In this document: in pieces, positions 13,407 to 58,307 of the stretch
How the letters are laid out: every line of letters begins with the position of its first letter
Numbering within the stretch: position 1 is the first letter of the stretch
IMG/VR virus record: IMGVR_UViG_3300001765_000052
From: a virus
Strand: one strand, 5' to 3'
Length of the DNA stretch: 64,000 bases
Notes under the pieces: model-generated
The model's input: only the letters and a program-made list of their open reading frames with translations
What the model was told of the DNA's origin: nothing
The model's database searches: none
Program-made: the position numbers and the translations under genes

Positions 13407-13485
13407 TCTAGATTTTTTCAATCTTATATTATTTTAATGTGTTAGTGTCTTAACCAATGCAGTTATGCTGTAAGGAGAATTTATT
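13407..13485 (+). promoter_or_regulatory. early-promoter and leader module (cassette 5' element)
   Basis: tctagattttttcaat..tatatta..tg, then a TGCAG/CTGTA hairpin and AGGAG. The TATATTA core resembles the phiKZ early promoter TATATTAC. Confidence 0.75.
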
Positions 13486-13902
13486 ATGAACTGGTTTACA
13501 AAGTCTTATGTCGCTGCTACAAGTGATTTAAAGAAAACTGACCTAGTGGCTAATTGGGGTGGATGTGAACATGTAGAAGCTGACACAAAGTCATTGCACA
13601 TTGTATCATACGAAAATGACCCTTGGGGTAGAGAAGGATATTGTCTCTGTAAGGAATGCTGGGACAAGTGCCAAGAGGAAGAAGAAGATAAAGAAGTGTT
13701 TTGCAATGATTGCAAGACAAAAGTAAAAAAGAAAGATTCTATTACTTGGACCTGGTATGATTTTTATGCTCCATCTGGAGACACACCACTTGTTATATGC
13801 AAAGCGTGTGCTACAAAAGAAACACATAAACGTAGAACCCAAAAAGATGAAGCCGACAGAAAAGCTGAGTTTGGTGACCATGATAACGATTATTGCGATT
13901 AA
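13486..13902 (+). CDS. Cys-rich (zinc-binding) hypothetical protein
   Basis: Several CxxC motifs, strong SD. Confidence 0.8.
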   Translation: MNWFTKSYVAATSDLKKTDLVANWGGCEHVEADTKSLHIVSYENDPWGREGYCLCKECWDKCQEEEEDKEVFCNDCKTKVKKKDSITWTWYDFYAPSGDTPLVICKACATKETHKRRTQKDEADRKAEFGDHDNDYCD

Positions 13903-13912
13903 CTAATGTATA

Positions 13913-13946
13913 AAAATAAACCATTGTGGGCTCTTATTTTTTTTTT
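13913..13946 (+). repeat. conserved 3' element type A (terminator-like)
   Basis: aaataaaccattgtgggctcttattttt is identical at about 20913 and 25074. Confidence 0.9.
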
Positions 13947-13993
13947 GTTTAAAAACAAATATAATCACATATTACAAATATGAAAGGATTTAA

Positions 13994-14299
13994 ATGATTA
14001 ATAAACCAGTAGTATTAAATTATAAAACCATGCCATCAAATGTTGAAGGTGTAAACATAATGAGACCTAGTCCATTTGGAAATCCATTTAAAATTCCACA
14101 AGATGGAACAAGGAATGAAGTGTGTGATAAATTTGAAGCATATGTAAATTCTAATTCTGTTTTAATCCAAAAAATTAAAACAGAATTAAAAGGAAAAAAC
14201 CTGGTGTGTTGTTGTAAAAAACCAAATAAAGAAGTTCGGTGTCACGGCGATACTCTTTTAAGAATCGCAAATGAAATTAATGAAAGCGATTATTTATGA
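13994..14299 (+). CDS. DUF4326-family protein
   Basis: RPSPFGNPF, LKGKNLVCCC and CHGDTL motifs. Confidence 0.8.
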   Translation: MINKPVVLNYKTMPSNVEGVNIMRPSPFGNPFKIPQDGTRNEVCDKFEAYVNSNSVLIQKIKTELKGKNLVCCCKKPNKEVRCHGDTLLRIANEINESDYL

Positions 14300-14604
14300 A
14301 TAAACCAGAACAAAGAATTGTTTGCGCAGCTTGTAGAAATAAAGATAATCATGTTATTATTGGAATCAGACATTTTGATACAATAATGCATACTACAATT
14401 GATGATAGATTAAACTTTTATCCAAATGAACATTGGGCTAATTGTGAACAAGGTTTTTTAGATCAATACGGTGAATTTTTTGATAGAAAGACTAGCTGGT
14501 TAATTGCTTGCTCTGCTAATCAAATAATTCGTTTAGTAGGAAATCAAACTAAAGAAGATTTAAATAAATCGGGTGTTGAACTTTATTCTGAAAATTTATA
14601 TTAA
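14296..14604 (+). CDS. conserved phage hypothetical protein
   Basis: IVCAA..RH..QGFLDQYGEFFDR..IA..Q..LYSE pattern, apparently related to 36396..36737. Confidence 0.75.
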   Translation: MNKPEQRIVCAACRNKDNHVIIGIRHFDTIMHTTIDDRLNFYPNEHWANCEQGFLDQYGEFFDRKTSWLIACSANQIIRLVGNQTKEDLNKSGVELYSENLY

Positions 14605-14608
14605 AATT

Positions 14609-14783
14609 ATGTATTTTTATAAATCATTAAAAGTTATATTTTCTATAATTTTAACTATAGTTTGGTTAATTGGTATAACTATATCAAAAGGTGTAGTATC
14701 AACTTATTTTTTCAATTATATTTCCACCGTATGCTTGGTATTTAGTTGTAGAGAAAATTACTAAAATGTATGGGTTTATTTGA
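14609..14783 (+). pseudogene. small membrane protein with a frameshift in a T-run
   Basis: MYFYKSLKVIFSIILTIVWLIGITISKGVVSTYF continues as SIIFPPYAWYLVVEKITKMYGFI* in another frame after the T6 run at about 14707-14712. Confidence 0.55.
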
Positions 14784-14813
14784 CATTAATATTTTTTAAA
14801 AAGGAAATTAAAA

Positions 14814-16181
14814 ATGAGTAACATTCAAGTAGGGATTACAGATCATTTAGATCCAGAAGTAGAAGCTATGGTAATGGCAATGTATAGTCGTAGCTATGCA
14901 CCAATTGAAGGGCGTATTCCTTCTAGTGAAGAATCTATTGAAGAACATAAAAAGAAACTAGGTAAATTTTATATTGGATACAATCACAAAAGTGTGGGTC
15001 AACTTGGAGATACAACAATTTGGATAGAAGGTGTCTCTATGCTTGCAGCTAAAGCTATTGAAAATCATCCTCTATATAACGGGCAAGAAAGTTCAACAAG
15101 ATATATTGACTTCTCCAGTCAACCAATGTTTTCACCTAATGAAGATATCGTGTATTGGCAAGAGAAATTTAGAGCTTTCTATATCAAAGCAGTTCCGTTA
15201 GTAATTGAAAAACTTAAATTAGAGTTTCCTCTAATAGAAAATGTTAAATATGTAGGTGATCCATTAACTAATAAAGACAGTGCTGTTTGGGAAAATACGA
15301 TTAAAGCAAGAGCTTTTGATATTTGTCGAGGAATCTTACCTGCAGGCTGCACTACTAATGTAGCATTCAAAGGTACATTTGACACTATCAACGACCATTT
15401 TGGTGAGATGCTGTATCACCCATGCCAAGAGATGAGAGATATTGCAGAAACAGTTCTTACTAAATTGAAAGAAAAATATCCATATGCTGCTATGGATATT
15501 GATAAACTAGAAGAAAGGCACACATATGTGAATAATATATTTTTCTATCAGTGTTTTGATGTATATGGGGAAAGCACTAGTGTAAAAGTTGTTACTGATC
15601 CAGAAAGTGCTAGTTTTAATGATTTAGAATTTTTTCATAAAAGAGATAAATTTTCTAAACTCAGTAGATTTATTTCTAATTTCTTTAGAATAAGGTTAAT
15701 AGGTTTACTTGATTTTGGATCTTATAGGGATATTCATAGGCATCGTAATGGTTATATTGGAATGGAAGCTTTGTCTATCGATAAAGGATTCCATGAATTT
15801 TATTTGAATAACCTTACACCTGAATTGACTGATGAATTAACAGATATTTTAAGTGAATATGAAGATTGGTATGAGAATATAGTTGACCTAGACACAATAA
15901 ATGGTTTAACATCTAATGAGCTTTATGATTTACAATATTGTACACCTATGGGCTATAGAGTAGCAATTGATTACAATTGCGACATCAATCAGGCTCTTTA
16001 TTTAATGGAACTTCGTTCCGGTAAAACAGTACATCAAACACTTAGAGAACTTATTCAATCTTGGGTAATACAATTAAAAGAAATTTATCCAACTTTAGAT
16101 ATCCATGCAGATATGGATAAAGATAATTTTACTCTTAAAAGAGGAAATCAGACATTTGATAATCTAATGTATCAAAATTAA
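14814..16181 (+). CDS. thyX: FAD-dependent thymidylate synthase (long form)
   Basis: YIGYNHKSV, QESSTRYIDF, ARAFDICRGILPAG, DFGSYRDIHRHR and ELRS motifs. Confidence 0.85.
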   Translation: MSNIQVGITDHLDPEVEAMVMAMYSRSYAPIEGRIPSSEESIEEHKKKLGKFYIGYNHKSVGQLGDTTIWIEGVSMLAAKAIENHPLYNGQESSTRYIDFSSQPMFSPNEDIVYWQEKFRAFYIKAVPLVIEKLKLEFPLIENVKYVGDPLTNKDSAVWENTIKARAFDICRGILPAGCTTNVAFKGTFDTINDHFGEMLYHPCQEMRDIAETVLTKLKEKYPYAAMDIDKLEERHTYVNNIFFYQCFDVYGESTSVKVVTDPESASFNDLEFFHKRDKFSKLSRFISNFFRIRLIGLLDFGSYRDIHRHRNGYIGMEALSIDKGFHEFYLNNLTPELTDELTDILSEYEDWYENIVDLDTINGLTSNELYDLQYCTPMGYRVAIDYNCDINQALYLMELRSGKTVHQTLRELIQSWVIQLKEIYPTLDIHADMDKDNFTLKRGNQTFDNLMYQN

Positions 16182-16439
16182 ATGAAAAAAAGTATTTATT
16201 ATCAAGGACCTAAAAAATTAAATACGTCAACTACTCCAGTTATTTCTGTTATAAAAGTTATATTGCCGCTTCTTTCAACTAATTTAATTACTCGTAATGA
16301 GGATATATTAGATTTTAATAATCTTGTTAATAAAAGTTATATTTCTATTCAGAAACCACAATATAACTTAAACAAAGACCGTTTATCTATATTAGGTAGA
16401 AGTACATATGGGCCTCAAAAGTTACATAGGAAAAAATAG
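16182..16439 (+). CDS. hypothetical protein
   Basis: ORF abutting thyX. Confidence 0.5.
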   Translation: MKKSIYYQGPKKLNTSTTPVISVIKVILPLLSTNLITRNEDILDFNNLVNKSYISIQKPQYNLNKDRLSILGRSTYGPQKLHRKK

Positions 16440-16753
16440 TGTTAATTATTTCTAAGAAAACAAAAGCAATTTCAGATAAACAGTATGCTAATCAAATTGA
16501 ATATTGGTTAAATTTAAAAAATAAATTTTTAGATAAAACCCAATCAACTTTTCTAAAAGAAGTTAATAAAGTAATTGGTGAGTATACTTATGTAAACATT
16601 GAATTAGAAAAATCTAATTTTTGCGTGTATTATACGGTAATTGAATTTCAAAGAAATAAAATTGATATATTATTTAGAAATACATCTCGAATCACTATTT
16701 CTAAACCAATTGAAATGTGTACTAATTTAATCCAGATCACCTTTGAGGTTTAA
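16439..16753 (+). CDS. hypothetical protein
   Basis: ORF in the operon, GTG start. Confidence 0.55.
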   Translation: MLIISKKTKAISDKQYANQIEYWLNLKNKFLDKTQSTFLKEVNKVIGEYTYVNIELEKSNFCVYYTVIEFQRNKIDILFRNTSRITISKPIEMCTNLIQITFEV

Positions 16754-16755
16754 AA

Positions 16756-17208: not shown

Positions 17209-17214
17209 TATAAG

Positions 17215-17260: not shown

Positions 17261-17287
17261 ATTTTATTTAAATTAAAGGAGTTTGTA

Positions 17288-17359
17288 ATGGAATCTAAAA
17301 AAGTAAACACAGCATCAACAATATTGACACAACTCTTAACAGGGAAAGAAAAGATTTAA
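17288..17359 (+). pseudogene. orphan 5' fragment homologous to the start of gene 18059
   Basis: AAAGGAG SD, then MESKKVNTASTILTQLLTGKEKI*, compared with MESNQKNKLVDILRQLGTGKDNQ at 18059. Confidence 0.75.
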
Positions 17360-18018
17360 ATATGCTTCCAAGTTACACCGTGTATTATTTTGAATATAGC
17401 ACCATTGCTGACATTATGCTTATCTGCTAAATTTTGCATAGATGTGACTTTTGGTATATATTCTATTCGTATATTTTTAACTTTTTCTTCATTTAATATA
17501 ACGCCAATTGCGTTTTCGCCGTGGCGATGACGTTTTTTATTAACTACATCTAAAGAATTATCTTTGTATGTACCCTGTTTTAAATGATCAGGATTAATAC
17601 ATTTTCTATTATCACATTCATGTAAAATTATATTACCATCAATAATTTCACCTTTATTTGCAATATAAGATAATCTATGCGCTTTGGTTACTTTACCGTC
17701 CACGTTTAATACGCCATATCCTGTTTTTGCGACAGCGCCTGTCCATTCAACACAACCATTGTCTTTTTTAATAGAATATTTATCTAACCTTGATTCGATT
17801 GACCTGGTAACAGATGCTTTGTCTTTATAATAGCAATCTAATGAACAATATTTTTGAGATGTGTTACCAGAAACTCTATTAAAAATTTTACCGCATCCTG
17901 CACACGTGGTTTTTAACATTTCTTCATTGTGTATTCTTCTGCATTCATATGAGCAATGTTGAATGTCTTTATGATGTGTTTTAAAAATAATGCCACATTG
18001 ATTACATTTTATTTCCAT
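17356..18018 (-). CDS. free-standing HNH homing endonuclease with N-terminal zinc-finger repeats
   Basis: CVEWTG..GYG..AHRLSY..ILHECDNRKCINPDHL..GT..DN, two CxxC...CS..C repeats and a C-terminal HTH-like segment. Opposite strand to its neighbours. Confidence 0.9.
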   Translation of the reverse strand: MEIKCNQCGIIFKTHHKDIQHCSYECRRIHNEEMLKTTCAGCGKIFNRVSGNTSQKYCSLDCYYKDKASVTRSIESRLDKYSIKKDNGCVEWTGAVAKTGYGVLNVDGKVTKAHRLSYIANKGEIIDGNIILHECDNRKCINPDHLKQGTYKDNSLDVVNKKRHRHGENAIGVILNEEKVKNIRIEYIPKVTSMQNLADKHNVSNGAIFKIIHGVTWKHI

Positions 18019-18334: not shown

Positions 18335-18336
18335 AA

Positions 18337-20440: not shown

Positions 20441-20519
20441 TCTAGATTTTTTCAATTGTATATTACTTTTATGAGATATTGTTTATTCAATGTAGTTATA
20501 CTACGAAGGGATTTAATTT
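20441..20519 (+). promoter_or_regulatory. early-promoter and leader module
   Basis: tctagattttttcaattgtatattac..., TGTAG/CTACG hairpin, then GAAGGG. Confidence 0.75.
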
Positions 20520-20900
20520 ATGAAAATGGTTATTGTGCGAGGTTTACCTGGTAGCGGTAAATCAACTATTGCAAAGCAATTAATTGGTAATGAAGTACAT
20601 ATCAAACATTTTGAAGCTGATATGTACTTCATGTCAAATGGTGCATATATATTCGATCATACAAGATTAAAAGAAGTGCACCAACAATGTCAAGCAGATG
20701 TGAAGTCTGCACTTCTTATCGGTTATGATGTTGTAGTTTCTAACACCTTCGTTAAGAAATGGGAAATAGAACCTTATCTTTTAATTGCAAAAGATATTGG
20801 TTGTGATGTTGAGGTAATTGTAGCAACTGGTGAATATAGTAATGTTCACGGTGTCCCAAAAGAGGTCATTGAAAGAATGAAATCAAATTGGGAGAGTTAA
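20520..20900 (+). CDS. P-loop kinase-like ATP-binding protein (AAA_33-like)
   Basis: IVRGLPGSGKST, EADMYF, VVVSNTF and NVHGVP motifs. Confidence 0.9.
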   Translation: MKMVIVRGLPGSGKSTIAKQLIGNEVHIKHFEADMYFMSNGAYIFDHTRLKEVHQQCQADVKSALLIGYDVVVSNTFVKKWEIEPYLLIAKDIGCDVEVIVATGEYSNVHGVPKEVIERMKSNWES

Positions 20901-20912: not shown

Positions 20913-20945
20913 AAATAAACCATTGTGGGCTCTTATTTTTTTTTT
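20913..20945 (+). repeat. conserved 3' element type A
   Basis: aaataaaccattgtgggctcttattttt. Confidence 0.9.
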
Positions 20946-20952
20946 CTCTTAA

Positions 20953-21032
20953 TCTAGATTTTTTCAATTATATATAACTAAACTGATATAATGTCTTATC
21001 AACAATGCGGCATAGCTGCGAAAGGGTTTTAG
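20953..21032 (+). promoter_or_regulatory. early-promoter and leader module
   Basis: tctagattttttcaattatatataac..., TGCGGC/GCTGCG hairpin, then AAAGGG. Confidence 0.75.
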
Positions 21033-21368
21033 ATGGAAACTGTGGATTGGGGATACTTAGCTGAACAGATAGAAATTATTAAAACTTTAAGTATTGTTGG
21101 AGGGCCATATGGAGGTATGGATAAAGAAAAACGTCTTAGAAGTGATTGGAAATTTTTATTTGAAATACTTTTGAAAAATAAAATGATTGCATTATCCAAA
21201 TCTTCAAAATTCAAACCAAAAATGGACCAACGTCTGCCTTATTATCCTTTTACTGAAATTTGTGACATAGGTCCAATAGAAGATTATGAAATTACAATTG
21301 GAGGAACAGTATATTTGAAAAAATTTCAAAATATGAAATTTCCAATAGAGAAAACTATTTGGGAATAA
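21033..21368 (+). CDS. hypothetical protein (cassette gene)
   Basis: 111-aa ORF between the conserved 5' and 3' elements. Confidence 0.75.
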   Translation: METVDWGYLAEQIEIIKTLSIVGGPYGGMDKEKRLRSDWKFLFEILLKNKMIALSKSSKFKPKMDQRLPYYPFTEICDIGPIEDYEITIGGTVYLKKFQNMKFPIEKTIWE

Positions 21369-21371
21369 AAT

Positions 21372-21408
21372 AAAAAAAATAACCCGGTGGCGGGCTCTAT
21401 TTTTTTTT
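21372..21408 (+). repeat. conserved 3' element type B
   Basis: aaataacccggtggcgggctctattttt. Variant copy at 58272. Confidence 0.85.
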
Positions 21409-24004: not shown

Positions 24005-24655
24005 ATGAAATCATTAGTTTTATACTCTACCATTGCAGGTGGTTTTTACACGCATACTGAAAATCTAGAAAAAGCTATTGGCATAGCTAGATCAAACGTA
24101 GGTGACGATGTATGGAAAAAAGGCTTTTCTGGAAAAGATTCATCTGGTGCTACTGCTGCAGCTATTACTGAATTGAATGTTGCAGGTATTGAACCTGTCA
24201 AAGTAGAAGGTGAGTTGAAGAATGTAAGCTTTGTGGAAAACAAAGATGGTGCAGGAAATGTTTATCCTAAACTAAGAGTGGATATTGCAAATGGTGATAA
24301 TGTAATGTTATTATCATTAGATCTAAAGAGCGATGTTGCACAACGGTTAATTGCTAAGTTAGATAATTGCCAGCCAGGTGACCATGTAAAGGTAGCTGCA
24401 TGGGCTAGTCCTGTAGACAGAGGTGAGCGCACTTTCATTAACCATGCTGTCAGTGTCAAGGGCGGACAAGGTGAAGAAGTCAAAGTTAATCCTGAATTCT
24501 CTAGCAACATAAAGAACCAAACTGAAGCTTTAGAGAATACTCTAAAGTCAGCTGGCATTAATGATGTAAAAGTTATTTCGGCAGCTAAAACAAATAAACG
24601 AATTGAAGCACATAAAGAAAAGTTGCTTGACATACAAAATAGATTTAAAACTTAA
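24005..24655 (+). CDS. hypothetical protein
   Basis: 216-aa ORF with highly-expressed-type codon usage. Confidence 0.8.
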   Translation: MKSLVLYSTIAGGFYTHTENLEKAIGIARSNVGDDVWKKGFSGKDSSGATAAAITELNVAGIEPVKVEGELKNVSFVENKDGAGNVYPKLRVDIANGDNVMLLSLDLKSDVAQRLIAKLDNCQPGDHVKVAAWASPVDRGERTFINHAVSVKGGQGEEVKVNPEFSSNIKNQTEALENTLKSAGINDVKVISAAKTNKRIEAHKEKLLDIQNRFKT

Positions 24656-24733
24656 TCCAGATTTTTTCAATCTTATATTACATTAATGAGATAGTGTCTT
24701 AGTTAATGCTACATAGTAGCGAAAGGATTTATT
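24656..24733 (+). promoter_or_regulatory. early-promoter and leader module
   Basis: tccagattttttcaatcttatattac..., TGCTAC/GTAGCG hairpin, then AAAGGA. Confidence 0.75.
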
Positions 24734-25057
24734 ATGAGTGAGTTTTTTCAATGTAAAAGTGAAAAAGATTGTTATGTAGGGTTAACTAAAAACGCCACAG
24801 ATGTTGTTCAAAGTTTACTTTTAATAAAAGGTAAAATAGGTGAGCGCGTGTGGAAACACCTCGATGATGAGTTTCATGAAAAAATCACAGCATCCGTTTA
24901 TATAAACGGAGGAAGTCACATATTTAGTCACCTTACATTAAAGAATAATGAAGGTGAGCATGATTGTTTTGGCTGGACATATAAAGAATATGTCGAAGGT
25001 GGTTTTGATTGGATTTCTGGAGAACAGTGTTGGTTTGGAAAAACCAACATAATGTAA
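24734..25057 (+). CDS. hypothetical protein (cassette gene)
   Basis: 107-aa ORF between the conserved elements. Confidence 0.8.
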   Translation: MSEFFQCKSEKDCYVGLTKNATDVVQSLLLIKGKIGERVWKHLDDEFHEKITASVYINGGSHIFSHLTLKNNEGEHDCFGWTYKEYVEGGFDWISGEQCWFGKTNIM

Positions 25058-25072
25058 ATTCTGTTTTAATTA

Positions 25073-25103
25073 AAAATAAACCATTGTGGGCTCTTATTTT
25101 TTT
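25073..25103 (+). repeat. conserved 3' element type A
   Basis: aaataaaccattgtgggctcttattttt. Confidence 0.9.
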
Positions 25104-25161
25104 GTTTCAAAATAAATTTAGCCATATATTACTAATATGTAATAACTTAAAGGAAACTAAA

Positions 25162-25425
25162 ATGCCAGACTTTAAATTACCATTTATTTATGCAACTGTA
25201 ACAAATAATACAAATCCAAATGATCTAGTGGTTTCCGAATGGACGGTTATTATTAGCGAACCGGGAATCTTCGGTATCGATCCAGCTACTTTTATTCTTA
25301 CTGAACCAATTACTCGTTTAGTATGTCCGACGAGCACACAAGAAGAAGAAGTGTTAAACCAGAAAATATTTCCTACATATCAAGATGCTTGGAATTATGT
25401 TCAGGATTGGTGGGTTGTTCAATGA
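25162..25425 (+). CDS. hypothetical protein
   Basis: Likely start is ATG 25162 after AAGGA. Early-promoter motif catatattactaatatg at about 25123. Confidence 0.7.
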   Translation: MPDFKLPFIYATVTNNTNPNDLVVSEWTVIISEPGIFGIDPATFILTEPITRLVCPTSTQEEEVLNQKIFPTYQDAWNYVQDWWVVQ

Positions 25426-25527
25426 TATAAACTAATTAAAAAATAAATAAATAAATATTTTTAATGGTATGTAAATTAAATAATTTACATATTTAAATCA
25501 AATCCTTAAAAAGAAAGAGGTAATGTT

Positions 25528-26073
25528 TTGCAATATATCAAATTAATATTTTTATATTTATGTTTATTTACAACTAATGTTTTTTCAGATACGTTAGATA
25601 GATTTATAGCATCGTTAGATGAGCAAGCTACTTCTGCTGAGTGGGTAGTAAAAAATGCACAAACAAAATTAACTCAGCAACAAGCGCAATCCATAGTGTC
25701 ACACACTTACGCGCACTCGTTATCAAACGATATCAATCCGAAACTATTACTGGCTCTAATAAAAACAGAAAGTGGTTTCATCAAAAATGCAAAATCCAAT
25801 CATAAAGCAATTGGCTTAACGCAGATAATTCAAAAATGGCATAAAAAGAAATTAAAAAATAGAAGTCCATTAAATCCTGTGGTAGCTATCGAAGTTGGAA
25901 CACTTATATTAAAAGAATGTTTCGTTTCAAACAAAAATAATGAAGTAAAAGCTTTATCTTGTTACAACGGATCTAAAAATAAAATTTATTTTAATAAAGT
26001 AAAGAAACAGGAGCATATACTCTCTACTTATATTAAAAATCAAACAATATTAACATTAGCACAAAACAATTAA
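25528..26073 (+). CDS. lytic transglycosylase (SLT domain) with signal peptide
   Basis: LLALIKTESGF..AKS..AIGLTQI and AL.CYNG motifs. Confidence 0.85.
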   Translation: MQYIKLIFLYLCLFTTNVFSDTLDRFIASLDEQATSAEWVVKNAQTKLTQQQAQSIVSHTYAHSLSNDINPKLLLALIKTESGFIKNAKSNHKAIGLTQIIQKWHKKKLKNRSPLNPVVAIEVGTLILKECFVSNKNNEVKALSCYNGSKNKIYFNKVKKQEHILSTYIKNQTILTLAQNN

Positions 26074-32223: not shown

Positions 32224-32466
32224 ATGGCTACTTTAATAATCCCTGATGTGAACGATCGTACTGTTAATTCACCTGCTATTCTTGTAAATAGTAAAACTAT
32301 TCTGAATATTTATAATTATAATAAAAATCTAAAATTACCTAAAATAAATCAGGATATTTTAGATTGGTTTAAAGAAGTTAGTAAAACATACATGTGGGAT
32401 GAAGTTATTCAATATGGACATGATGTTTTATTAGTCGCTAAAATTGTCATGGTTCAGAATAATTAA
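32224..32466 (+). CDS. hypothetical protein
   Basis: GAGG SD. Confidence 0.7.
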   Translation: MATLIIPDVNDRTVNSPAILVNSKTILNIYNYNKNLKLPKINQDILDWFKEVSKTYMWDEVIQYGHDVLLVAKIVMVQNN

Positions 32467-32497
32467 AGCATATATTATTTTAATGAGAGTAGTTTGT

Positions 32498-32574
32498 CCA
32501 CTAGTGGCCAAGTCGGGTTTAAGGCAACGACCTCATAAGTCGTCGATTCATTGGTTCAAATCCAATCTAGTGGA
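32498..32574 (+). tRNA. tRNA with CAU anticodon (probably Ile2, lysidine-modified; Met not excluded)
   Basis: Cloverleaf: ccactag/ctagtgg acceptor, gcc/ggc D stem, acgac-ctCATaa-gtcgt, attgg-ttcaaat-ccaat. CCA is not encoded. tilS lies about 240 nt downstream. Confidence 0.9.
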
Positions 32575-38438: not shown

Positions 38439-39599
38439 TTATGGGGGATTTACTACAACTGGAGGATTAACAACTACAGGTGGAGTAACCGTTGGTACTA
38501 TTTGGACCACAGGGGGATTTACTACAACTGGAGGATTAACAACTACAGGTGGAGTAACCGTTGGTACTATTTGGACCACAGGTGTGATAACAGGTGTCGG
38601 TGTAGTCGTCGTTGTAAATGCCCCAGAGCCTAATGTGCCTGTGCCACTTAAACTACTAAATGTTCCGCTACCTAATACACCAGTTCCTGATAATGTGTTT
38701 GTTGTAGTTGTATTGGTAGTAGTTGTATTATTAGTTATATTAGGTGCCGGTACGCCGCCACTATTAGCTACACTGGCTAGTGCATTTGATCCAGCTGTAC
38801 TAATTGAACTCATACCAGCTACACTAGTATTAGCTACACTTGTTAGCGCCGTAGTACCTGCTACAGTTGTAGTAGTTAAAGCTGTATTTCCAGATTTTAC
38901 TATTTCAGTAGTAGCTAAATTATTAGATTTAGCTACTTCGGTTAATGCAACAGTTCCAGCTGTGGCTACATTTGTTAAAGCATTATATCCGACACCAGAT
39001 ACTGTTGCTAATGTTGAACTATTTGAAATAGCCAAATTAGTTAAGGAAGTGTTTCCAGATGTAGCTATATTAGCTAAAGAAGTATTCCCGGATGTAGCTA
39101 TATTAGTCATGCCAGTAGCACCAGTTTGTGCAGTGGCAGATATGCTTTGGCCCATATTTGCAAATGTATTATTTGTCGATTGGGCAACAGAAGCTGCATT
39201 ATTACTACTATTTATAGCAACATCGGAACTCTTTTTAATACTGTATAATTGTGTTACACCTGGTATAACAACACTAGCCCATCTTAAAAGTGTTTCACCT
39301 ACCGGAGTGGGTGCCGCAATTTGGACAGCTTGTTGTTGAGGTTGTTGGTTATTCTGGTTAAGATTTTGCATAGCCATCACTGTAGCTATTTTAGCAGTAT
39401 TATCTCCACTAACTGCTATTGCAGAGTAAGCATTATATCTAGCTATGTCAGCTAAAGACTTTGCTTTAGCTTGCTCTTCAATCGATTTATTATTAGAATC
39501 TATAATGCTTTTTTGCATGTTTATATATAACTCATAGTCATTAGTAGCACAACCAGTTAATAATAAAGCTGTAATAATACTTATTTTTTTCATATACAA
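38439..39599 (-). CDS. lipoprotein with low-complexity Thr/Ala/Asn repeats and a Pro/Val tail
   Basis: Lipobox LLTGC, repeated IATSGNTSL units and a 23-aa tandem duplication. Confidence 0.85.
   Translation of the reverse strand: MYMKKISIITALLLTGCATNDYELYINMQKSIIDSNNKSIEEQAKAKSLADIARYNAYSAIAVSGDNTAKIATVMAMQNLNQNNQQPQQQAVQIAAPTPVGETLLRWASVVIPGVTQLYSIKKSSDVAINSSNNAASVAQSTNNTFANMGQSISATAQTGATGMTNIATSGNTSLANIATSGNTSLTNLAISNSSTLATVSGVGYNALTNVATAGTVALTEVAKSNNLATTEIVKSGNTALTTTTVAGTTALTSVANTSVAGMSSISTAGSNALASVANSGGVPAPNITNNTTTTNTTTTNTLSGTGVLGSGTFSSLSGTGTLGSGAFTTTTTPTPVITPVVQIVPTVTPPVVVNPPVVVNPPVVQIVPTVTPPVVVNPPVVVNPP
38443..38582. repeat. 69-bp exact tandem duplication within the lipoprotein gene
   Basis: gggggatttactacaactggagg...tatttggaccaca at 38443 and 38512. 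Confidence 0.9.
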
Positions 39600-48607: not shown

Positions 48608-48683
48608 TCTAGAATTTTTCAGTTATATATTATTTAATTGGAATTAGTTAATTACTTGTACTGTTGTACAGAAAGGTATATTT
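48608..48683 (+). promoter_or_regulatory. early-promoter and leader module
   Basis: tctagaatttttcagttatatatta..., CTGT/ACAG hairpin, then AAAGG. Confidence 0.65.
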
Positions 48684-49166
48684 ATGTTTGGGTATCTTTT
48701 GGCATTTGTTATGAAATTCGCAGCTGTCCTCACATCGGAAGGTGTGCGTATCAAAGACTTCCGGTTTGCCGGAAGTGATTGTGTGGAAATTTTCTTCTTT
48801 GAATCATATTGGAAGTTAGAAATTATTTACGATACAGACGAGAATGGTTTGATTAGTATTTACATTCATGACCCCAACAGTGAAGAATACAAATCAGTAT
48901 CGTTTATAATTGAACATGGATTATCTGTTGAACAGTTTACCACCGCATTTATAACATTAGTAGACATTGATAAATTTAAACCAGCAAAAAAGTATTTCTT
49001 TACTAAATTATGTAAGAAATGCGGCACTGTTTATTTCAAAAGAGAAATAAACAAGGTTGTGTACCAAAACCAATTGGATAATGATAATATCCAAGAAGTG
49101 TTTTCTAATTATGCACAAGAACAGTGCATTCAATTGGAAAGCACTTGTGAAAAGTGTTCTAGCTAA
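48684..49166 (+). CDS. hypothetical protein with C-terminal CxxC pairs
   Basis: Single + strand gene inside a - strand block, with its own promoter module. Confidence 0.75.
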   Translation: MFGYLLAFVMKFAAVLTSEGVRIKDFRFAGSDCVEIFFFESYWKLEIIYDTDENGLISIYIHDPNSEEYKSVSFIIEHGLSVEQFTTAFITLVDIDKFKPAKKYFFTKLCKKCGTVYFKREINKVVYQNQLDNDNIQEVFSNYAQEQCIQLESTCEKCSS

Positions 49167-49174: not shown

Positions 49175-49212
49175 TAGTACACGTACTCCCTTAATTGGGA
49201 GTACGTGTACTA
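49175..49212. terminator. bidirectional palindromic terminator
   Basis: tagtacacgtactccc-ttaatt-gggagtacgtgtacta. Confidence 0.8.
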
Positions 49213-49222: not shown

Positions 49223-50347
49223 TTAAATTTTTTGTGCTACTATAGTAACAATTAAACCTTTTATATCCGCATCAATTACAGCTGGAGCTTCAATAATATC
49301 AAAAGTGATTCTCTCGCCTTTGGCTACCATTGTATCAACCATATTAGGATTCGGTGTAGCGGAACTTGTAGATGAACCAGTCATAAAATCTATAAGCATA
49401 TATACACTATTAAAAATAGATACACCAGATACTTTTACATCTACCGTTAATTTTACGGCAGGGTCTGTAGTACTACCAAAATTACATACAAATGCATCTA
49501 TCCAGATATCTTTTATATCCATATCAAATGGTACTACAAAATATCCTTTATTTAAACTAGCGACACAGGTTTCATCAACAGCAGTTAACTGTGCGGTAAA
49601 CGGATAGGTTACAATTGGTGCAGGTGTACCAGCTGGTCCTTGAATACCTTGTGGTCCTTGAGGACCTTCAGCACCTGGTAAACCTTGAATACCCTGTGGA
49701 CCTGCTGGACCAGTATCACCTTGTGGACCTGGAATGTTTGACACACCATCAGCACCTGTTAAACCTTGAATACCCTGTAGACCCGTATCACCTTTAGGAC
49801 CTTGTGGACCTGGAATGTTTGACACACCATCAGCACCTTGAACACCTTGAGGACCATCTGGTCCAGGTATAATGGAATCTGCTCCAGGGATACCTTGAAT
49901 ACCTTGAACGCCTTGTGGTCCAGTTTCACCTTGAATACCCTGAGTACCCTGTGGACCTTGAGGACCTTCTACAGTTGAATCAGCACCCGCTGGGCCTTGT
50001 GGACCTGCTGGACCTGTAAGACCTTGTGGCCCAACTTCACCTTGAATACCTTGTGGACCTGCTACACCTTGAGCACCTTGGGGTCCTGGAACTAATGAAT
50101 CTAGACCTGTAGCACCTGTATCACCTTTAGGACCAGTAGCACCAGTAGTGCCAGTAGGTCCGACCAAACTAAGCAACCATTCTGCTTCAGTACCGATGAA
50201 ACCTTTAGATACAGCTAAATCGTATGCGTTTTTATAAGCAGGAATAATACTTACAGGGGCGCTTTTGCTAACACCACCTTGTACAATTTCAATAAGTTCA
50301 ACTCCAGTGAGTGAACTAGCAACAGGTAATTCTGATATTTTAGACAT
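49223..50347 (-). CDS. collagen-like (Gly-X-Y) fibre protein
   Basis: Long GPQG/GxQG repeats after 'AYDLAV..GFIGTEAEWL.SL.G'. Confidence 0.9.
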   Translation of the reverse strand: MSKISELPVASSLTGVELIEIVQGGVSKSAPVSIIPAYKNAYDLAVSKGFIGTEAEWLLSLVGPTGTTGATGPKGDTGATGLDSLVPGPQGAQGVAGPQGIQGEVGPQGLTGPAGPQGPAGADSTVEGPQGPQGTQGIQGETGPQGVQGIQGIPGADSIIPGPDGPQGVQGADGVSNIPGPQGPKGDTGLQGIQGLTGADGVSNIPGPQGDTGPAGPQGIQGLPGAEGPQGPQGIQGPAGTPAPIVTYPFTAQLTAVDETCVASLNKGYFVVPFDMDIKDIWIDAFVCNFGSTTDPAVKLTVDVKVSGVSIFNSVYMLIDFMTGSSTSSATPNPNMVDTMVAKGERITFDIIEAPAVIDADIKGLIVTIVAQKI

Positions 50348-50962: not shown

Positions 50963-51044
50963 TTTAGATTTTTTCAGTTGTATATTATTTAATTGAACAG
51001 TAATTGTCCTGTTCGTAATTGCAGTACACTGCGAGAAAGATTAT
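50963..51044 (+). promoter_or_regulatory. early-promoter and leader module
   Basis: tttagattttttcagttgtatatta..., then a TGCAG/CTGCG hairpin. Confidence 0.7.
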
Positions 51045-51383
51045 ATGGAATTTATTCTTATTATTGTGAAGACTATCATGTCAAGTATTATTGACAGTGG
51101 GCATATGTTTGATTCGGTTGAGTTTGGAAGACTCAACCGAATCAACATTAGGATGAAACCTAAACCTGAACAATGTGTTCAAATTCTGATTCGTCCTGGC
51201 GAGGGAGATAAAGAAGTAGTTATATTAGTATCGGTACCAACAGGCCCTGATCTATTATATACTGATTACAAGTATGTAATCTACAGTCATACTCACACAT
51301 ATGCTGAGCTTAAAAAATATTCTGACTTTATTGTCAGAATAACTGACTCTATATCTGTTAAAAAAACAGATAATATAGATTAG
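51045..51383 (+). CDS. hypothetical protein
   Basis: Single + strand gene inside a - strand block, with its own promoter module. Confidence 0.7.
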   Translation: MEFILIIVKTIMSSIIDSGHMFDSVEFGRLNRINIRMKPKPEQCVQILIRPGEGDKEVVILVSVPTGPDLLYTDYKYVIYSHTHTYAELKKYSDFIVRITDSISVKKTDNID

Positions 51384-51389
51384 TAAAAC

Positions 51390-51435
51390 ATGAGCACTAT
51401 CATTACCTATTTAAATAGGTAATGATAGTGCTCAT
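51390..51435. terminator. perfect palindrome terminator
   Basis: atgagcactatcattacctattt/aaataggtaatgatagtgctcat. Confidence 0.8.
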
Positions 51436-51445
51436 AACTTATTTT

Positions 51446-51832
51446 TTAATTTTCAGTGTTTTGCCAAAACGGAACAGCATCTCCGTTTCCAGATCCTACT
51501 GATTCTGCACCTAATCGTTTAGAATGTATTGCTGGTTTATTTAAATCGTCAGGAATGGGTCCCTTAATAGGAAATGGTAATACAAAATACATTTGGTCTT
51601 GTGGTATCACATCTACCCCCCTATGTTTATCTCTTTGTAGAGTTAAGTATGCTCGGTTATTTACAAACTCAATGTGCATATAAATTCCCAAATCGTATTC
51701 TTGATCGATTTGTTTACTACCAGAAAAATAACCTCTACCAGGTAATAACTTTACAAAGTTTTGATGGCCATCTCTGATTAGTTGTTTTGCGTCAGTTGAC
51801 AATTGATGGGGTGTTATAAAAGTGATTCTTCT
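51446..51832 (-). CDS. dnaB: DnaB-like replicative helicase, exon 2
   Basis: RRITFITPHQLSTDAKQ...YFSGSKQIDQEYDL...RDKHRG. Joins exon 1 in frame. Confidence 0.88.
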   Translation of the reverse strand, partial: RRITFITPHQLSTDAKQLIRDGHQNFVKLLPGRGYFSGSKQIDQEYDLGIYMHIEFVNNRAYLTLQRDKHRGVDVIPQDQMYFVLPFPIKGPIPDDLNKPAIHSKRLGAESVGSGNGDAVPFWQNTEN

Positions 51833-53621
51833 CTTTTTGTCCAGTTAGTTCGTTAATCTAACCCGGTGTGCTACGACACCCGCCAATACTTTCATATTGG
51901 AACAGACTATATCTTCATCCCCAGCATTATCTGGTAGGATGTTCTCCGCTTCGGAGGCACTGCCTCCTACTCGCATCGCTGCGATAGTCGTTGAACCTTA
52001 TCCACTGTATCTCTACATAGAGGATCTTGGCTGCTGATTACCCAATCCAAATCGTTTTCAAACTATGGCTTTAGCTTTCGCTTCGCAGTAGTGATTTGGC
52101 TCTTTAGGGACTCCCAGCAATTCAAAGAAAATACATTAAAACATTACTGTTTTAATGACCTGAAAACAAACCCTTTAAAAGGTTCTCCGGTAAATATCCT
52201 ACGCTTAACAGTCCTAAACTCAACGCCCGACACAGTGGCGGCATGTTTTATTGAGTTAGCAATAGTTTCCACACCAGTAGAAACATTTGTTATTGAGACT
52301 CTATCGTGCGTAGTTGGTTTATTCTTATAATCATTTAGATTAAAATCTTTGTTTCTAGGGACAACAACCCATTTGTTAGAATAAATGAACTTGAATCCAC
52401 GACTTAAATCGTATTGCAATTCAGTTCGGCTTCTTCCAATATGTGCTGCTGATTCAATAATTGATTTAAAAATATATGCCTTACTATTTTCTAAATCATG
52501 GACAAAATACGGTCCAATTATTGAATTTCTGACATAACTAACTTCCAGATCAGGATATTTTTCTTTGAATAATCCAATGGCGTAATCTAAACTACTTCTT
52601 TTATCTTTCAATCCAGAATGTAATTTATATTTATTACGAAATTTTTTTGAATTTGAGAATCTATTAATTTCACCTGTCGATTTGTCTAACACTGTTATTG
52701 TGAAAATCGATTTAGTAAAAGAAAAATCTTCATTTTTGTTTTCGTAATACCAAGGACTATCGTCGTCAAAATATTTTATCTCGTATCGTTTCTTGTAAGC
52801 CGCACCAGGCAATTTATTTACTAAACTCCCTGGGACTATATTTGACATACCTAGAACACGAGACATTTCTCCTGCTGACCTATAAATAACAATTTCTCCA
52901 GTAACAATATCTCTGGTTTTCATTTTACTACAACCAGAGTTTAAACCAATATCAAACGCATGATTAGAATTACGCTCGTATGTGCACCACTCTAAATTAC
53001 TTAGTTTGTTGTTGGTTTTATTACCGTCGATATGATTCACTATTGGTTTATTAATGAAATCGTTATTTGGAAGCCACGCTAATGCCATTAGACGATGAAC
53101 GCGAGTGTTTCTATTTCCGCCTTTATCTGGTGAATAAATAAAAATTACTTCGTACTCGTCTAGTATTTCCCTATCGGTGACTATTTTTCCAGTTAAAGTA
53201 TCTAGAACATCTGAATCTATATTTATAGCGTATCTAGAGTAATTTGGTATAAAACGAAAACCTTCTTTATAATAAATAGGTTCACTAAACATCATTATTT
53301 TGCCACAACTAACTCTTAGAATTTTATGTGGATTGTAAAACTTAATTTTATCTATATGTTTATCTAAATCGTGTATATGATCTAATTCATACCACGCTAA
53401 AAGCGAAACCCAAATTACACTTCGTTTAATTATTTTACCAAATAATTCTATATATACAAATTTATCAATTCTCTTTAACTGTATTTTAGTACCGTAATTA
53501 TCAAAGAAATCACCTTGTAGATTTACAAGAATATTTATATTACCGGGTATCTTTTTAATCATTTTACGTTTTTCCTATGTTTCATACCATAGGTGCGTAA
53601 TTTGATCGGTGTTGTTCGTTA
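51833..53621 (-). mobile_element. group I self-splicing intron carrying an HNH endonuclease gene
   Basis: Minus strand has P (AAUUGCUGGGA), Q (AAUCAGCAG), R (GUUCAACGACUAU) and S (AAGAUAUAGUC), with P7 gactat/atagtc. Exon 1 ends in U, the intron ends in G, and splicing restores ...NFFST-RRITFITPHQLS. Confidence 0.92.
52144..53562 (-). CDS. intron-encoded HNH homing endonuclease (NUMOD4/HNH/NUMOD1-like)
   Basis: VHRLMALAWLPN..VNHIDGNKTNN..SNLEWCT...N..HA, with C-terminal 'SI..AA' repeats. Confidence 0.9.
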   Translation of the reverse strand: MIKKIPGNINILVNLQGDFFDNYGTKIQLKRIDKFVYIELFGKIIKRSVIWVSLLAWYELDHIHDLDKHIDKIKFYNPHKILRVSCGKIMMFSEPIYYKEGFRFIPNYSRYAINIDSDVLDTLTGKIVTDREILDEYEVIFIYSPDKGGNRNTRVHRLMALAWLPNNDFINKPIVNHIDGNKTNNKLSNLEWCTYERNSNHAFDIGLNSGCSKMKTRDIVTGEIVIYRSAGEMSRVLGMSNIVPGSLVNKLPGAAYKKRYEIKYFDDDSPWYYENKNEDFSFTKSIFTITVLDKSTGEINRFSNSKKFRNKYKLHSGLKDKRSSLDYAIGLFKEKYPDLEVSYVRNSIIGPYFVHDLENSKAYIFKSIIESAAHIGRSRTELQYDLSRGFKFIYSNKWVVVPRNKDFNLNDYKNKPTTHDRVSITNVSTGVETIANSIKHAATVSGVEFRTVKRRIFTGEPFKGFVFRSLKQ

Positions 53622-54773
53622 AGTTGAAAAAAAGTTTCTAGTCCTTCTATACAAATCTCTTAATGAGTGCCCCATAGGACCTTCTTCGCATCCAGTAGTA
53701 GGCAGCATTGGTAGGTAGTCTACAATGCATAAATGTATTTCATACCCATTTGCCTCTAATTCTAAAACATAGTTTTGCAAGTCTTTGTATGTCCAATTAG
53801 TAGGATCTACTCTGAGCATTCTAATCTGGTATCCATTGACCTGCATTTTTTCTTTGACATAGCTAGCCATTTCTATATTACTGAGTTTATCAATCTCGGG
53901 TAATATATTATATTCATTATACCATAAATTCTGATAAAGGAATTGCAAATTGCTAGACAGATTATCCTCAAAAGAAATCCTTAATAACATTGGTTTCTTA
54001 TTAGGATTTATCATTACTGGTTTATTGTATATAGCAATTTGCTTAAACAATGTTAATGTAAAACCAGTTTTATATTTATGCTGTAATGCAGGTAACACTA
54101 TTTGCTCACCTCTTCTAAATCCACCTTGAAGCATAGTGTTAAGTGCTTGCCAACCAGTTACTAGTAAACCAGTATGATCAGCATTAGCTTTAACTTCCGC
54201 AAACATTTCACTTAAACTACTAGTATCACCAATATCCACACTGTTAATAATAGATGGATCTTTTTTACCAGATTCTATTTGATATGGCTCTAATTTAATA
54301 CACAGATCATTAACAAAAGTTCTGACATTTTTAATTTTCTCTCTCTTAAACATTATTTCGTTACTAGCTGACTTAATAATCTTAACTATCTCATTTTCTC
54401 TAAAGATGTCATTGATATATCTTCTAATACTAATAATAGTTCGTTTTAAACTACCTTCATCCATGTCTTTATCGATACCTTGATGAAAAGCTTCATATAA
54501 CTTTTCATCATCTAAACAGTTAACCTTTAAACGTTGTAATAATTCTTCTTTTTCATACACTGTATCAAAAGGGTTATTACATAAATAAATAGCGGTTGTT
54601 TTTAATGAATCTAATACTTCTGCACTATGGCTCAACGTTAATGATGATTCTGGTGTTTTAATTTCTTCCAAGACTGTTCTAACTAAATCTGCACTATTTT
54701 CTGATTTTTCAAGGAGTAAACTTTCCCTGTATAAAAGAGTAATGCACTTACAAAGAATTAATTTATTATCCAT
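53622..54773 (-). CDS. dnaB: DnaB-like replicative helicase, exon 1
   Basis: TGWQALNTMLQGGFRRGE, ALQHKYKTG Walker A variant and VDYL. Synteny with capsid and RNAP genes matches phiKZ gp118-gp123. Confidence 0.9.
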
Positions 54774-55446: not shown

Positions 55447-55564
55447 ATAATGCAATTAATTTATAGACAATATTGTGTATAATGATACAATATAAATTAA
55501 AACATTATTGCTGTTTAATTTTATTTTCTAATTTTTTAAATTTTACTTAAAGGAATGTTTTCAA

Positions 55565-57778
55565 ATGAAGCATCAAAATCTTTTTAGCAATCGTGGAATG
55601 ACTCCACAGATTGAAGCGTCTCCAGTTGCATTAGTTCTAGAGTCACTACAAGCAGTTGTCAACCAAGGTCCTGGACAATTCGCTACACCTGAAGTAGCTA
55701 AAGCTGCTATGGCGATGGAAGGTATGACCCCTGATAAACAATTTCAACTAAATACAGCTGTATCTAATTTGTCAAACGTCATCGACACTTGCCTTAAAAC
55801 TCTTCCTGGTTTTGGTAAGCTTAATATTGCACAAGAGTCAGCAGCAATTGCTGCTGGTGTTATAGCATCTGCACCTCAATCGTACTACATGAAGCCACAG
55901 CAAACAGCTGGTGCCCTTCAAGCAGCTGCCACTGGTACCAACACTACTGTTATTGGTAATGCTGGCATTAACGGCGCTATGGAGTCACGTGCGTTTTCAT
56001 TGGAAGCTTTTGACACAAAAGAAAATAAAAACGCAATGGTTTATTCAGTTGCTTACAATATGCAAGCAGCTCGCCAAGATGAGTTCGGTGAAGCCTTTTT
56101 CCCAACAATCGTTGTTACTCCTGACAACGTCGGCTTCATGGTATCAATTCGTTTGATCTATGTACAAGATGAAGTTCGTCGTGAACTTAATGGTTCCCTA
56201 GATAAATTCGGACGTAAAAATATCATTAAGGCAGTTATTGATGCAACTATCCTTCGTAATGACCAAACTAAAATTGTACCAATCGTACGTACCGGTGGTG
56301 GTGCTAATGATTCTACTGCTATGTTCGTTGCTGCTGCCGATGTTGCTCCTTACACAGTTACTCTAGACACACAACCTGTAGTCACCGCACCGTTAGCTGT
56401 TGGTAAAAAATTCTCTCTATTGGGCATTTCACAAACTGCTGCACTATTAGCTACTGGTATCCTTGATAGTACTGACGCTATTGATTCAGCAGTTCGTTTA
56501 AGCGCAGTATATGTTAAGATTAAAGCTGATGCTACTAATCCAGCAGCTGTTATTAAGTTTAATGTAGATAAGCTCCCACGTACTGACTTTAACTATGCAG
56601 TACAAGGTAATACTCGTCTGCTACAACTCAACTTTGAAACCGATGCACTACGTGTAGTTGCTACGACCAAGAAGATCGATGGTGCAGTTGTTCCACAACT
56701 TGCTGCTCTCACTGATCATACTGTCCGTTTAGGCTCTACTTTGTTTGGTTCAGTTCTACAAGATAAGGGCGATACAGTTGTAAATACTGGTGATTGCTCA
56801 GTTGCTAAAGTAACTACTATTGACGGCCAGATCATGGATCTAACCGCTGGTGCTGGTGCTACAATTGCTGCTATTTTTGCTGGCGCTGCTGTTATTGGTT
56901 ACGACTTAGTCGCATACCGTACCAATAGTAACCGTCGTCAACGTGGTCAGCTGATTGATACTCAATATGTCAATCATCTCTACACTGTGCCTCTGCTGCC
57001 CCCCATCACTGCTCTTCGTCCAGTTGGCGACACGGAAGCTAATGACAGCTCACTACTATCAGCTCTAATTACTACTACGCACATTCGTACTAGCAATGCA
57101 GCTGTCGGTGCTCTATTAGATGCTCGTGATTTCTTACGTGAATATGTTAACTCTTCTGATTTAGCAACTGATGCACCTGAAATTCTAGGTGTTTCTCGTT
57201 ATTTAGTATCACCTGCTTATGCAGAAGATACTCTTGATACTGAAACACAAATTGATTCACTGAAGTCTTCTGACCGTGCTGAAGATATGGTTGCTTTGAT
57301 TATCAACAAGATTCGTGACATGGCTTATCGCTTACACGTGACTTCTGGTTATAAGGCTGCTTGCGATGCATTGTTTGATGGTGCTGCACCTAAGCCAATG
57401 GTTATTATCGGTACAGACCCAATCCTGAACCGTTACCTAACCCTAAATGGTGACATGCGTCTACTAGGTGAATACTTTGATTACAAGTTAGTTTCTACAC
57501 TAGACAGCCGTATGACCGGTAAGCTCATTCTTACATTCGGTATGGAAACCAGCTACAACTCAGGTGTGCCTAACCCAATGCACTTTGGTTCAATGGCATG
57601 GAAGCCAGAATTAACTCTGATGATGCCTATCGTTCGTAACGGTGCAACTACTATGGAACTTACTGTTCAGCCTTCATTCCGTCACATTGTAAATCTGCCT
57701 GTTATGGGTTCATTGGATGTTATCAATATCCAAAACATCATCGCAGATAAGAGCATTGTAAATACACACGTTGTGTAA
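55565..57778 (+). CDS. major capsid protein (phiKZ gp120-like)
   Basis: 737 aa, propeptide with AME, AQE and SLE sites, YN..AARQDEFGEAFFPT and RTNSNRRQRG motifs, strongly biased codon usage, synteny. Confidence 0.88.
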   Translation: MKHQNLFSNRGMTPQIEASPVALVLESLQAVVNQGPGQFATPEVAKAAMAMEGMTPDKQFQLNTAVSNLSNVIDTCLKTLPGFGKLNIAQESAAIAAGVIASAPQSYYMKPQQTAGALQAAATGTNTTVIGNAGINGAMESRAFSLEAFDTKENKNAMVYSVAYNMQAARQDEFGEAFFPTIVVTPDNVGFMVSIRLIYVQDEVRRELNGSLDKFGRKNIIKAVIDATILRNDQTKIVPIVRTGGGANDSTAMFVAAADVAPYTVTLDTQPVVTAPLAVGKKFSLLGISQTAALLATGILDSTDAIDSAVRLSAVYVKIKADATNPAAVIKFNVDKLPRTDFNYAVQGNTRLLQLNFETDALRVVATTKKIDGAVVPQLAALTDHTVRLGSTLFGSVLQDKGDTVVNTGDCSVAKVTTIDGQIMDLTAGAGATIAAIFAGAAVIGYDLVAYRTNSNRRQRGQLIDTQYVNHLYTVPLLPPITALRPVGDTEANDSSLLSALITTTHIRTSNAAVGALLDARDFLREYVNSSDLATDAPEILGVSRYLVSPAYAEDTLDTETQIDSLKSSDRAEDMVALIINKIRDMAYRLHVTSGYKAACDALFDGAAPKPMVIIGTDPILNRYLTLNGDMRLLGEYFDYKLVSTLDSRMTGKLILTFGMETSYNSGVPNPMHFGSMAWKPELTLMMPIVRNGATTMELTVQPSFRHIVNLPVMGSLDVINIQNIIADKSIVNTHVV

Positions 57779-57858
57779 TCTAATTTTCAATGTTTTATTA
57801 GTTAAAGAATATACTTCTTTAAACTAAAAATATCGCTACTGAATAGGTAGGTTATTTT

Positions 57859-57903
57859 CATATATCCCTAGCTTAGCTCATAAGGCTTTGCTAGGGATAT
57901 ATG
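57859..57903 (+). terminator. hairpin terminator after the capsid gene
   Basis: catatatccctagc...gctagggatatatg. Confidence 0.7.
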
Positions 57904-57909
57904 TTGTAA

Positions 57910-58018
57910 TCTAGATTTTTTTTAGTCACATATAACTAATTTGAATAGGTATATGCCTTACTTGTTTAGAGTGTTATGTACTCTACAAATACACAATATA
58001 AACTTTGAAAGGGTTTAT
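57910..58018 (+). promoter_or_regulatory. early-promoter and leader module (longer variant)
   Basis: tctagattttttttagtcacatataactaatttgaataggtat. A similar copy is at 63921. Confidence 0.65.
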
Positions 58019-58267
58019 ATGACTGATCGTATTCTGGAGGATTGGAAAATTCTCCCGCTTCACGGTGGCGGTGTTACCGCCACCGGCAAGATTGGCGGCG
58101 CCGAGTGGCGTACGACCAAGGTGGTAAACACACGCCCTGGTCAGATCCGGACTGAGTCCGGATCGGTCTACACCCTGGGTGCCCAAAACACAGGCATGTG
58201 GATGATGCAACTGCAGGTCAAGCGGCCTGCAGAGTATGCCAACTTGCAAAAGCAGGGCATACTTTAA
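58019..58267 (+). CDS. GC-rich small hypothetical protein
   Basis: ATG after GAAAGGG. Visibly GC-rich codons. 'LEDW...WRTTKVV...IRTESGSVYTLG'. Confidence 0.8.
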   Translation: MTDRILEDWKILPLHGGGVTATGKIGGAEWRTTKVVNTRPGQIRTESGSVYTLGAQNTGMWMMQLQVKRPAEYANLQKQGIL

Positions 58268-58271
58268 AAAC

Positions 58272-58307
58272 AAAAACAACCCGGTGGCGGGCTCTGTTTT
58301 TTTTTTT
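58272..58307 (+). repeat. conserved 3' element type B
   Basis: aaacaacccggtggcgggctctgttttt, a compensatory variant of the 21372 copy. Confidence 0.85.

Follow-up and report, generated by a model that had tools for sequence, protein, structure and literature searches.

Why would small genes that have nothing in common, scattered over one viral genome fragment, be enclosed by the same upstream and downstream sequences? The question is raised by a stretch of 64,000 nucleotides (nt) from IMG/VR virus record IMGVR_UViG_3300001765_000052, hereafter the window, in which an earlier note had described dispersed single-gene cassettes with a fixed 5' arm and a fixed 3' element around exchangeable cargo and had taken them for a gene-capture or shuffling system. 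Our analysis upholds the fixed arms around unrelated genes, and in related phages the cargo is inserted, missing, or replaced at the arm boundaries; a dedicated capture system did not emerge from it. Judged from sequence, the arms are a general early promoter and a phiKZ-style terminator that also serve operons, a tRNA gene, and ancestral genes, and we consider it probable that the cassettes are autonomous early transcription units whose arms serve a turnover of accessory genes like that of morons and of the PeSL cassettes of T4-type phages.

Fixed arms around unrelated genes

All five genes named as cassette cargo in the earlier note begin 78 to 109 nt downstream of the start of a 5' module and stop 6 to 16 nt ahead of a 3' element. 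Three exact copies of the 27-nt type A form of this element lie at 13914, 20913, and 25074, and the type B form is present at 21377 and 58274, with 0 copies of either expected by chance; the coordinates given at first were shifted by 0 to 5 nt. As had been reported, the 3' element is restricted within the window to positions after module-driven genes, and 48684 and 51045, which carry the 5' module, are single + strand genes within - strand blocks. Full 5' modules start at 13407, 20441, 20953, 24656, 48608, 50963, 57910, and 63921, every one on the + strand and ahead of a small + strand gene; seven are complete and the eighth (63921..64000) is cut by the window end. The upstream box of the module, TCYAGATTTTTT, occurs 13 times with at most one mismatch, against 3.2 expected. 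The seven cargo proteins have no similarity to one another, and tandem duplication with cargo divergence was rejected on this ground.

The first cassette has a 5' arm (13407..13485) with the upstream box, a TATATT-type core, a leader hairpin (13458-13472), and a Shine-Dalgarno (SD) sequence, scoring 39 in a position weight matrix built from the modules. Its cargo of 138 amino acids (aa) (13486..13902, phrog_8344) is followed by a type A element (13914..13940) and, about 30 nt on, by a promoter-type site (core 13969). The second arm (20441..20519, leader hairpin 20492-20504) stands directly after a 13-bp hairpin terminator and precedes a 126-aa AAA_33 P-loop kinase-like gene (20520..20900) with its best homologues in unrelated phages. 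The type A element behind this gene (20913..20939) abuts the third arm (20953..21032, leader hairpin 21007-21019), whose cargo, a 111-aa ORFan (21033..21368), is closed by a type B element (21377..21403). A 107-aa ORFan (24734..25057), with an identical protein in the close relative L113, lies between the fourth arm (24656..24733, leader hairpin 24708-24720) and a type A element (25074..25100), beyond which comes another promoter-type site (core 25126). The two cassettes inside - strand blocks end at bidirectional hairpins: the arm at 48608..48683 (hairpin 48657-48670) and its 160-aa cargo (48684..49166) at a unique one (49175-49212), and the arm at 50963..51044 (hairpin at about 51021-51032) and its 112-aa ORFan (51045..51383) at one spanning 51390-51435. 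After the terminator of the major capsid gene, a variant arm (57910..58018), which has a longer leader and two additional T, precedes an 82-aa gene (58019..58267), which has a GC content of about 0.50 in a window of about 0.31 and is a singleton ORFan in a collection of 5.8 billion proteins; its type B element (58274..58300) is followed by a promoter-type site at 58317. GC-atypical cargo genes are numerous (0.45 to 0.58, against about 0.30).

By its gene content the window (GC about 31%) is a fragment of an uncultivated phiKZ-like jumbo phage carrying its own RNA polymerase (RNAP). The genes that indicate this are those of the major capsid protein, which is of phiKZ type (55565-57778), of internal head proteins, of an SNF2 helicase sharing about 45% identity with the counterpart in Pseudomonas phage Noxifer, and of an RNAP beta-like subunit (60232-61854); jumbo-phage homologues of the last carry the annotation RNA polymerase beta subunit. 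The window also has genes for an NAD-dependent ligase, a ribonucleotide reductase, and a DnaB-like helicase. A megablast search of 13-26 kb against GenBank phages returned nothing, and a near-identical record is absent there. A locus search seeded with the window helicase alone gave zero relatives, and a helicase profile search gave only relatives of at most 48% identity, none with the 3' element near the helicase; helicases 65 to 79% identical to that of the window exist on other contigs. The relatives compared with the window here are the metagenomic contigs G001, G002, G003, L111, L112, L113, L115, and L116.

Across the window and these relatives, the two elements do co-occur: 13 of 17 3' elements pair with a promoter-type site 280 to 510 nt upstream, with one gene-sized open reading frame (ORF) in between. 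A 14th pairing, that of the element at 58274 with the variant module at 57910, was overlooked by the matrix because of the two extra T. The elements left unpaired belong to two multi-gene units (G001 and L115) and to a 409-aa gene with its upstream region cut off (L112), which qualifies the single-gene rule: in relatives the 3' element sometimes closes a two-gene unit or follows a gene of this size.

Signals within the arms

The 5' arm is made up of the upstream box, a (T/C)ATAT(T/A)AC core, and a conserved TG about 5 nt downstream of the core, which is probably the transcription start site. The core and a downstream TAA-WTTG match TATATTAC-type sites that lie in the intergenic regions of phiKZ ahead of + strand genes; one such site stands upstream of the nuclear shell gene. 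In RNAP-encoding jumbo phages, the virion RNAP reads an AT-rich motif, conserved and about 10 nt long, near -10 of the early units (PMC7598289). A 36-nt module including the box is also present in other jumbo-phage contigs of 45 to 55% GC, and sigma-70-like sites in the window are at or below shuffle expectation. For these reasons we take the module to be the putative early promoter of the clade.

The modules are the strong-consensus end of a continuum, since the weight matrix found about 10 further promoter-type sites on the + strand, including weaker ones with the shared core (29787, 32098, 32453, 58317, and 58676) and core-only ones (13969, 25126, 36054, 39654, and 44951). Downstream of the sites found are replication-type genes, ORFans, and a tRNA gene; ahead of the capsid gene, the matrix found no comparable site in the window. 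One site stands directly ahead of the tRNA gene (Rfam tRNA, 58.6 bits; 32453-32574), so the same promoter family would drive a non-coding gene too. Conservation of the 5' arm extends over about 80 to 110 nt, including leader stretches that look non-functional and about 10 nt upstream of the box, and it spans non-syntenic loci and genomes with an identity of only about 70% in their core genes. In phiKZ (L195), where we compared 30 nt on either side of the TATATTAC core, the sites at 2665 and 4516 (2635-2725 and 4486-4576) are identical from about 17 nt before the core through 30 nt after it; phiKZ therefore has duplicated 5' arms as well.

Between the promoter and the ATG lies a clade-specific leader of about 45 nt, in which a hairpin of 5 bp with a loop of 3 to 4 nt stands directly ahead of a GAAAGG SD sequence. 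The hairpin covaries in the 18 copies from the window and its relatives (91% paired, 15 double-change cells, the observed score being reached by 0 of 500 shuffles). A strict search of 1.7 Mb of jumbo-phage loci, including 50 kb of phiKZ, found it in the low-GC clade only, and Rfam contained no family matching the leader or the 3' element. Once, in G002, the hairpin occurs within an operon and lacks a promoter, which suggests that it acts in translation or mRNA fate and not in transcription. Presumably, the predicted structure sets translation efficiency, mRNA stability, or the binding of a regulator.

All variants of the 3' element have one layout, consisting of an A-rich tract, CC(C), a loop, (G)GG, an unpaired CUC, U(U)AU, and a U-run. 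It is a two-tier hairpin with an A/U lower stem and a short CC..GG upper stem; the TTAT region pairs with an upstream ATAA, giving AAATAA...TTATTT in type A and AATA...TAT in type B. Type B has 4 to 5 GC pairs (-11 to -15 kcal/mol, z -2.6 to -3.5), and its two copies are related by a compensatory change in the outer A/U stem, carried by the copy at 58274. In phiKZ, 61 terminators are reported in which TTAT follows a conserved stem-loop (Putzeys et al. 2024, PMC10914365); in the phiKZ sequence, we found them to consist of ATAA, a GC stem-loop, and TTAT, with an early promoter about 50 nt downstream of several. In the window, a promoter-type site follows four of the five 3' elements within about 15 to 45 nt, and the site after 21377 is degenerate. 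The 3' element is best read as the clade's version of the phiKZ-type terminator, with termination as its predicted function. A role on the - strand was considered and dropped, as the element folds there only marginally better, and a loose scan of viral contigs for the 3' pattern returned mostly chance terminator-like matches.

Cargo turnover and its explanation

Does the cargo between the arms change? Syntenic alignment shows that it does in several relatives. L113, which is 96% identical to window positions 24204-25919, carries the orthologous 24734 cassette and, in addition, one with an unrelated 71-aa gene as cargo. The left arm of this extra cassette matches 24568-24736 at 93% identity and the right arm matches 25069-25193 at 88%; homology is lost precisely at the ATG and is regained about 10 nt ahead of the 3' element. 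Beside the extra cassette (L113:1858-2716) are a 49-aa truncated copy of the homologue of window gene 26230 and a 74-aa chimeric ORF with an N terminus like gene 25162 and a C terminus like gene 26230; these ORFs would indicate an unequal recombination or duplication event.

G002 is syntenic with the window over 39.7-61.8 kb at about 70% identity. The 50963-51466 cassette (cargo 51045) is missing from it and from L115; it lies between genes that are adjacent in relatives and, as expected of a moron, brings a promoter and a terminator along. A hot spot lies immediately behind the major capsid gene. One cassette occupies it in the window, G002 has an HNH endonuclease and three different cargo genes with the same arms there, and L115 has a TnpB gene (OrfB_IS605 and Cas12f1-like TNB; L115:2-1180, - strand). 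The HNH endonuclease at L116:9910-10956, which is accompanied by three cassette genes, has 348 aa. G003 and L111 have common flanking genes around unrelated cassettes, which end in type B elements in the former and in type A/B-variant elements in the latter.

We hypothesize that, in this phiKZ-like jumbo phage, each cassette works autonomously as an early transcription unit. The injected virion RNAP would read the early promoter in the 5' arm, and the 3' arm with its phiKZ-like terminator layout would insulate the unit in both directions. The arms could double as ready substrates for homologous recombination, because they are long (about 80 to 110 nt and 30 to 45 nt) and near-identical between loci and between co-occurring relatives; this would explain the presence of different, often GC-atypical ORFans between the same arms in relatives. 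Arm-to-arm recombination of the PeSL kind is plausible. A bolder version, which we put forward tentatively and would not expect to hold in full, is that a guild of co-occurring jumbo phages, GC-rich ones included, shares the arms as a portable homology system, that recombination (possibly involving excised circles) routinely moves early accessory genes between loci and phages, and that the SD-adjacent hairpin is the operator of a phage-encoded post-transcriptional regulator of all cassettes.

Several observations weigh against this explanation. The insertion of 51045 lies between - strand genes at a site without a resident arm in relatives, so that arm-to-arm recombination cannot explain it. 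The 13486 family is conserved among jumbo phages of Ralstonia, Salmonella, Erwinia, and Vibrio, and the window gene is ancestral, at the same syntenic position as ORF161 of the distant Ralstonia phage RSL2, which is not the placement of a moron. A homologue of 48684 with 39% identity occupies the same place in G002. These two genes are residents, and therefore the arms are expression signals first and do not mark mobile genes as such. Finally, type A has only 2 to 3 pairs (-3.2 kcal/mol, z about 0) and folds no better than shuffles, yet it is exactly kept across phages with genes only about 70% identical, a perfect conservation that hairpin stability does not explain. The earlier note had named two findings that would speak against its reading, 3' elements occurring independently of the 5' module and fixed, syntenic cargo without indels at the element boundaries; we encountered neither of them in full, with cargo swapped or absent at the arms in L113, G002, L115, and G003/L111 and conserved in place for 13486 and 48684.

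Could the arms be purely regulatory, kept by the demands of RNAP, ribosome, and termination, while homing endonucleases, insertion sequence (IS) elements, and illegitimate recombination change the cargo? The use of the same promoter by operons, a tRNA gene, and ancestral genes agrees with this, as do the conserved early promoters and terminators of phiKZ itself, the HNH and TnpB genes at the post-capsid hot spot, and the lack of an arm at the 51045 site in relatives. Nevertheless, we consider this explanation unlikely. Regulatory demands account poorly for a 5' arm that is kept over its full length, non-functional-looking stretches included, across non-syntenic loci and genomes with core genes of only about 70% identity, and for homology in L113 that stops right at the edges of the arms.

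The 3' element, and type A in particular, could also be mainly a protein- or RNase-binding site or a processing or stability signal at the mRNA 3' end and not an intrinsic terminator. The weak type A hairpin and the conservation of sequence, not structure, across phages of about 70% identity are in line with this idea, and a simple terminator scan left types A and B uncalled on the + strand, because of the CUC spacer. However, termination agrees with the location shortly past the stop codons, with the U-run, and with the covarying outer stem, and it has its parallel in phiKZ; we regard a signal of this other kind as quite improbable. Site-specific capture as in integrons, with the 3' element as an attC-like imperfect palindrome with unpaired bases on which a phage enzyme acts, is hardly credible, for although type A is perfectly kept despite its weak fold, the unpaired CUC is kept in all variants, and cargo replacement is precise, no recombinase or integrase was found among about 45 proteins scanned from the window and its neighbours and none was linked to the cassettes, each cassette has a promoter, empty sites with a lone 3' element were not found, and the 3' layout fits phiKZ terminators. 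Early transcription units, with arms that may also recombine, are the preferred reading.

Other features of the window and relation to known systems

The DnaB-like helicase gene (region 51446-54773) is interrupted by a group I intron (Rfam 103.5 bits; 51883-52179, - strand) that carries an HNH endonuclease ORF (52144-53562), and this intron/HNH segment of about 1.8 kb is precisely missing in G002. Upstream of the SNF2 helicase, + strand genes flank a free-standing HNH endonuclease gene on both sides (HNH_3 domain; 17356-18018, - strand). Two paralogous internal-head-protein genes (3572-4801 and 4947-6266) have upstream sequences and first codons that are 89 to 95% identical (3509-3620 and 4881-4995); the duplicated upstream sequence may be a shared late regulatory region. 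There is also a perfect 69-nt tandem duplication (38443-38580) within a repeat-rich ORF region, and a collagen-like repeat gene on the - strand (49223-50347) has many 9-nt-phased repeats.

How do the cassettes compare with known systems? The analogy to PeSL cassettes, already drawn in the earlier note, is apt. In T4-type phages, ORFans of the variable regions lie between conserved early promoter and stem-loop motifs (Arbiol et al. 2010, PMC2839356; Comeau et al. 2014, PMC4122927). Here, too, relatives differ by inserted, deleted, or replaced cargo bounded by the motifs, ORFans are involved, and a terminator and a promoter form a composite (20913-20990). In contrast to PeSL cassettes, which have a sigma-70 consensus whose spacing and hexamers do not fit our modules, the promoter would be a phiKZ-type phage-RNAP promoter; moreover, the cassettes have an extra conserved leader hairpin with SD sequence, their 3' element is a separate conserved unit, and the phage family is unrelated.

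In phiKZ itself, moron-like single-gene units lie on the opposite strand within gene blocks (Putzeys et al. 2024, PMC10914365), much as 48684 and 51045 are lone opposite-strand genes in the window. The core promoter motif and the two-tier terminator layout are the same as in phiKZ (PMC10914365; Sokolova et al. 2020, PMC7598289), whereas the clade has an upstream box, a leader hairpin, and an exact terminator sequence of its own, type A is nearly without a GC stem, and cargo replacement between the arms is documented here through relatives. With the phage morons of Juhala and Hendrix the cassettes have in common a promoter and terminator of their own, insertion between genes adjacent in relatives (51045), and an atypical composition of some cargo (58019). 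They differ in that they belong to a lytic jumbo phage with predicted phage-RNAP promoters and in that their arms are near-identical copies and not unrelated signals. Integron cassettes are likewise single genes that can be exchanged, with a conserved imperfect palindrome after each, but here no integrase was found among the proteins scanned, there is no attI, every cassette has its own promoter, and the cassettes are dispersed and not arrayed. The family is not an integron.

The cassettes extend the moron and PeSL view of accessory-gene turnover to nucleus-forming, RNAP-encoding jumbo phages and provide a predicted early promoter, leader, and terminator for an uncultivated low-GC clade; with the covarying hairpin next to the ribosome-binding site, they add a small RNA motif that is new. 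The arms flag ORFans of predicted early expression, likely with functions in host takeover or anti-defence, and are of use in the annotation and mining of related metagenomic contigs. In summary, the system is of a kind already known, in that its signals belong to the phiKZ families of early promoters and terminators and its behaviour resembles that of PeSL cassettes and morons; what is new are the clade-specific arms, the covarying SD-adjacent hairpin, and the comparative evidence for exact cargo replacement.

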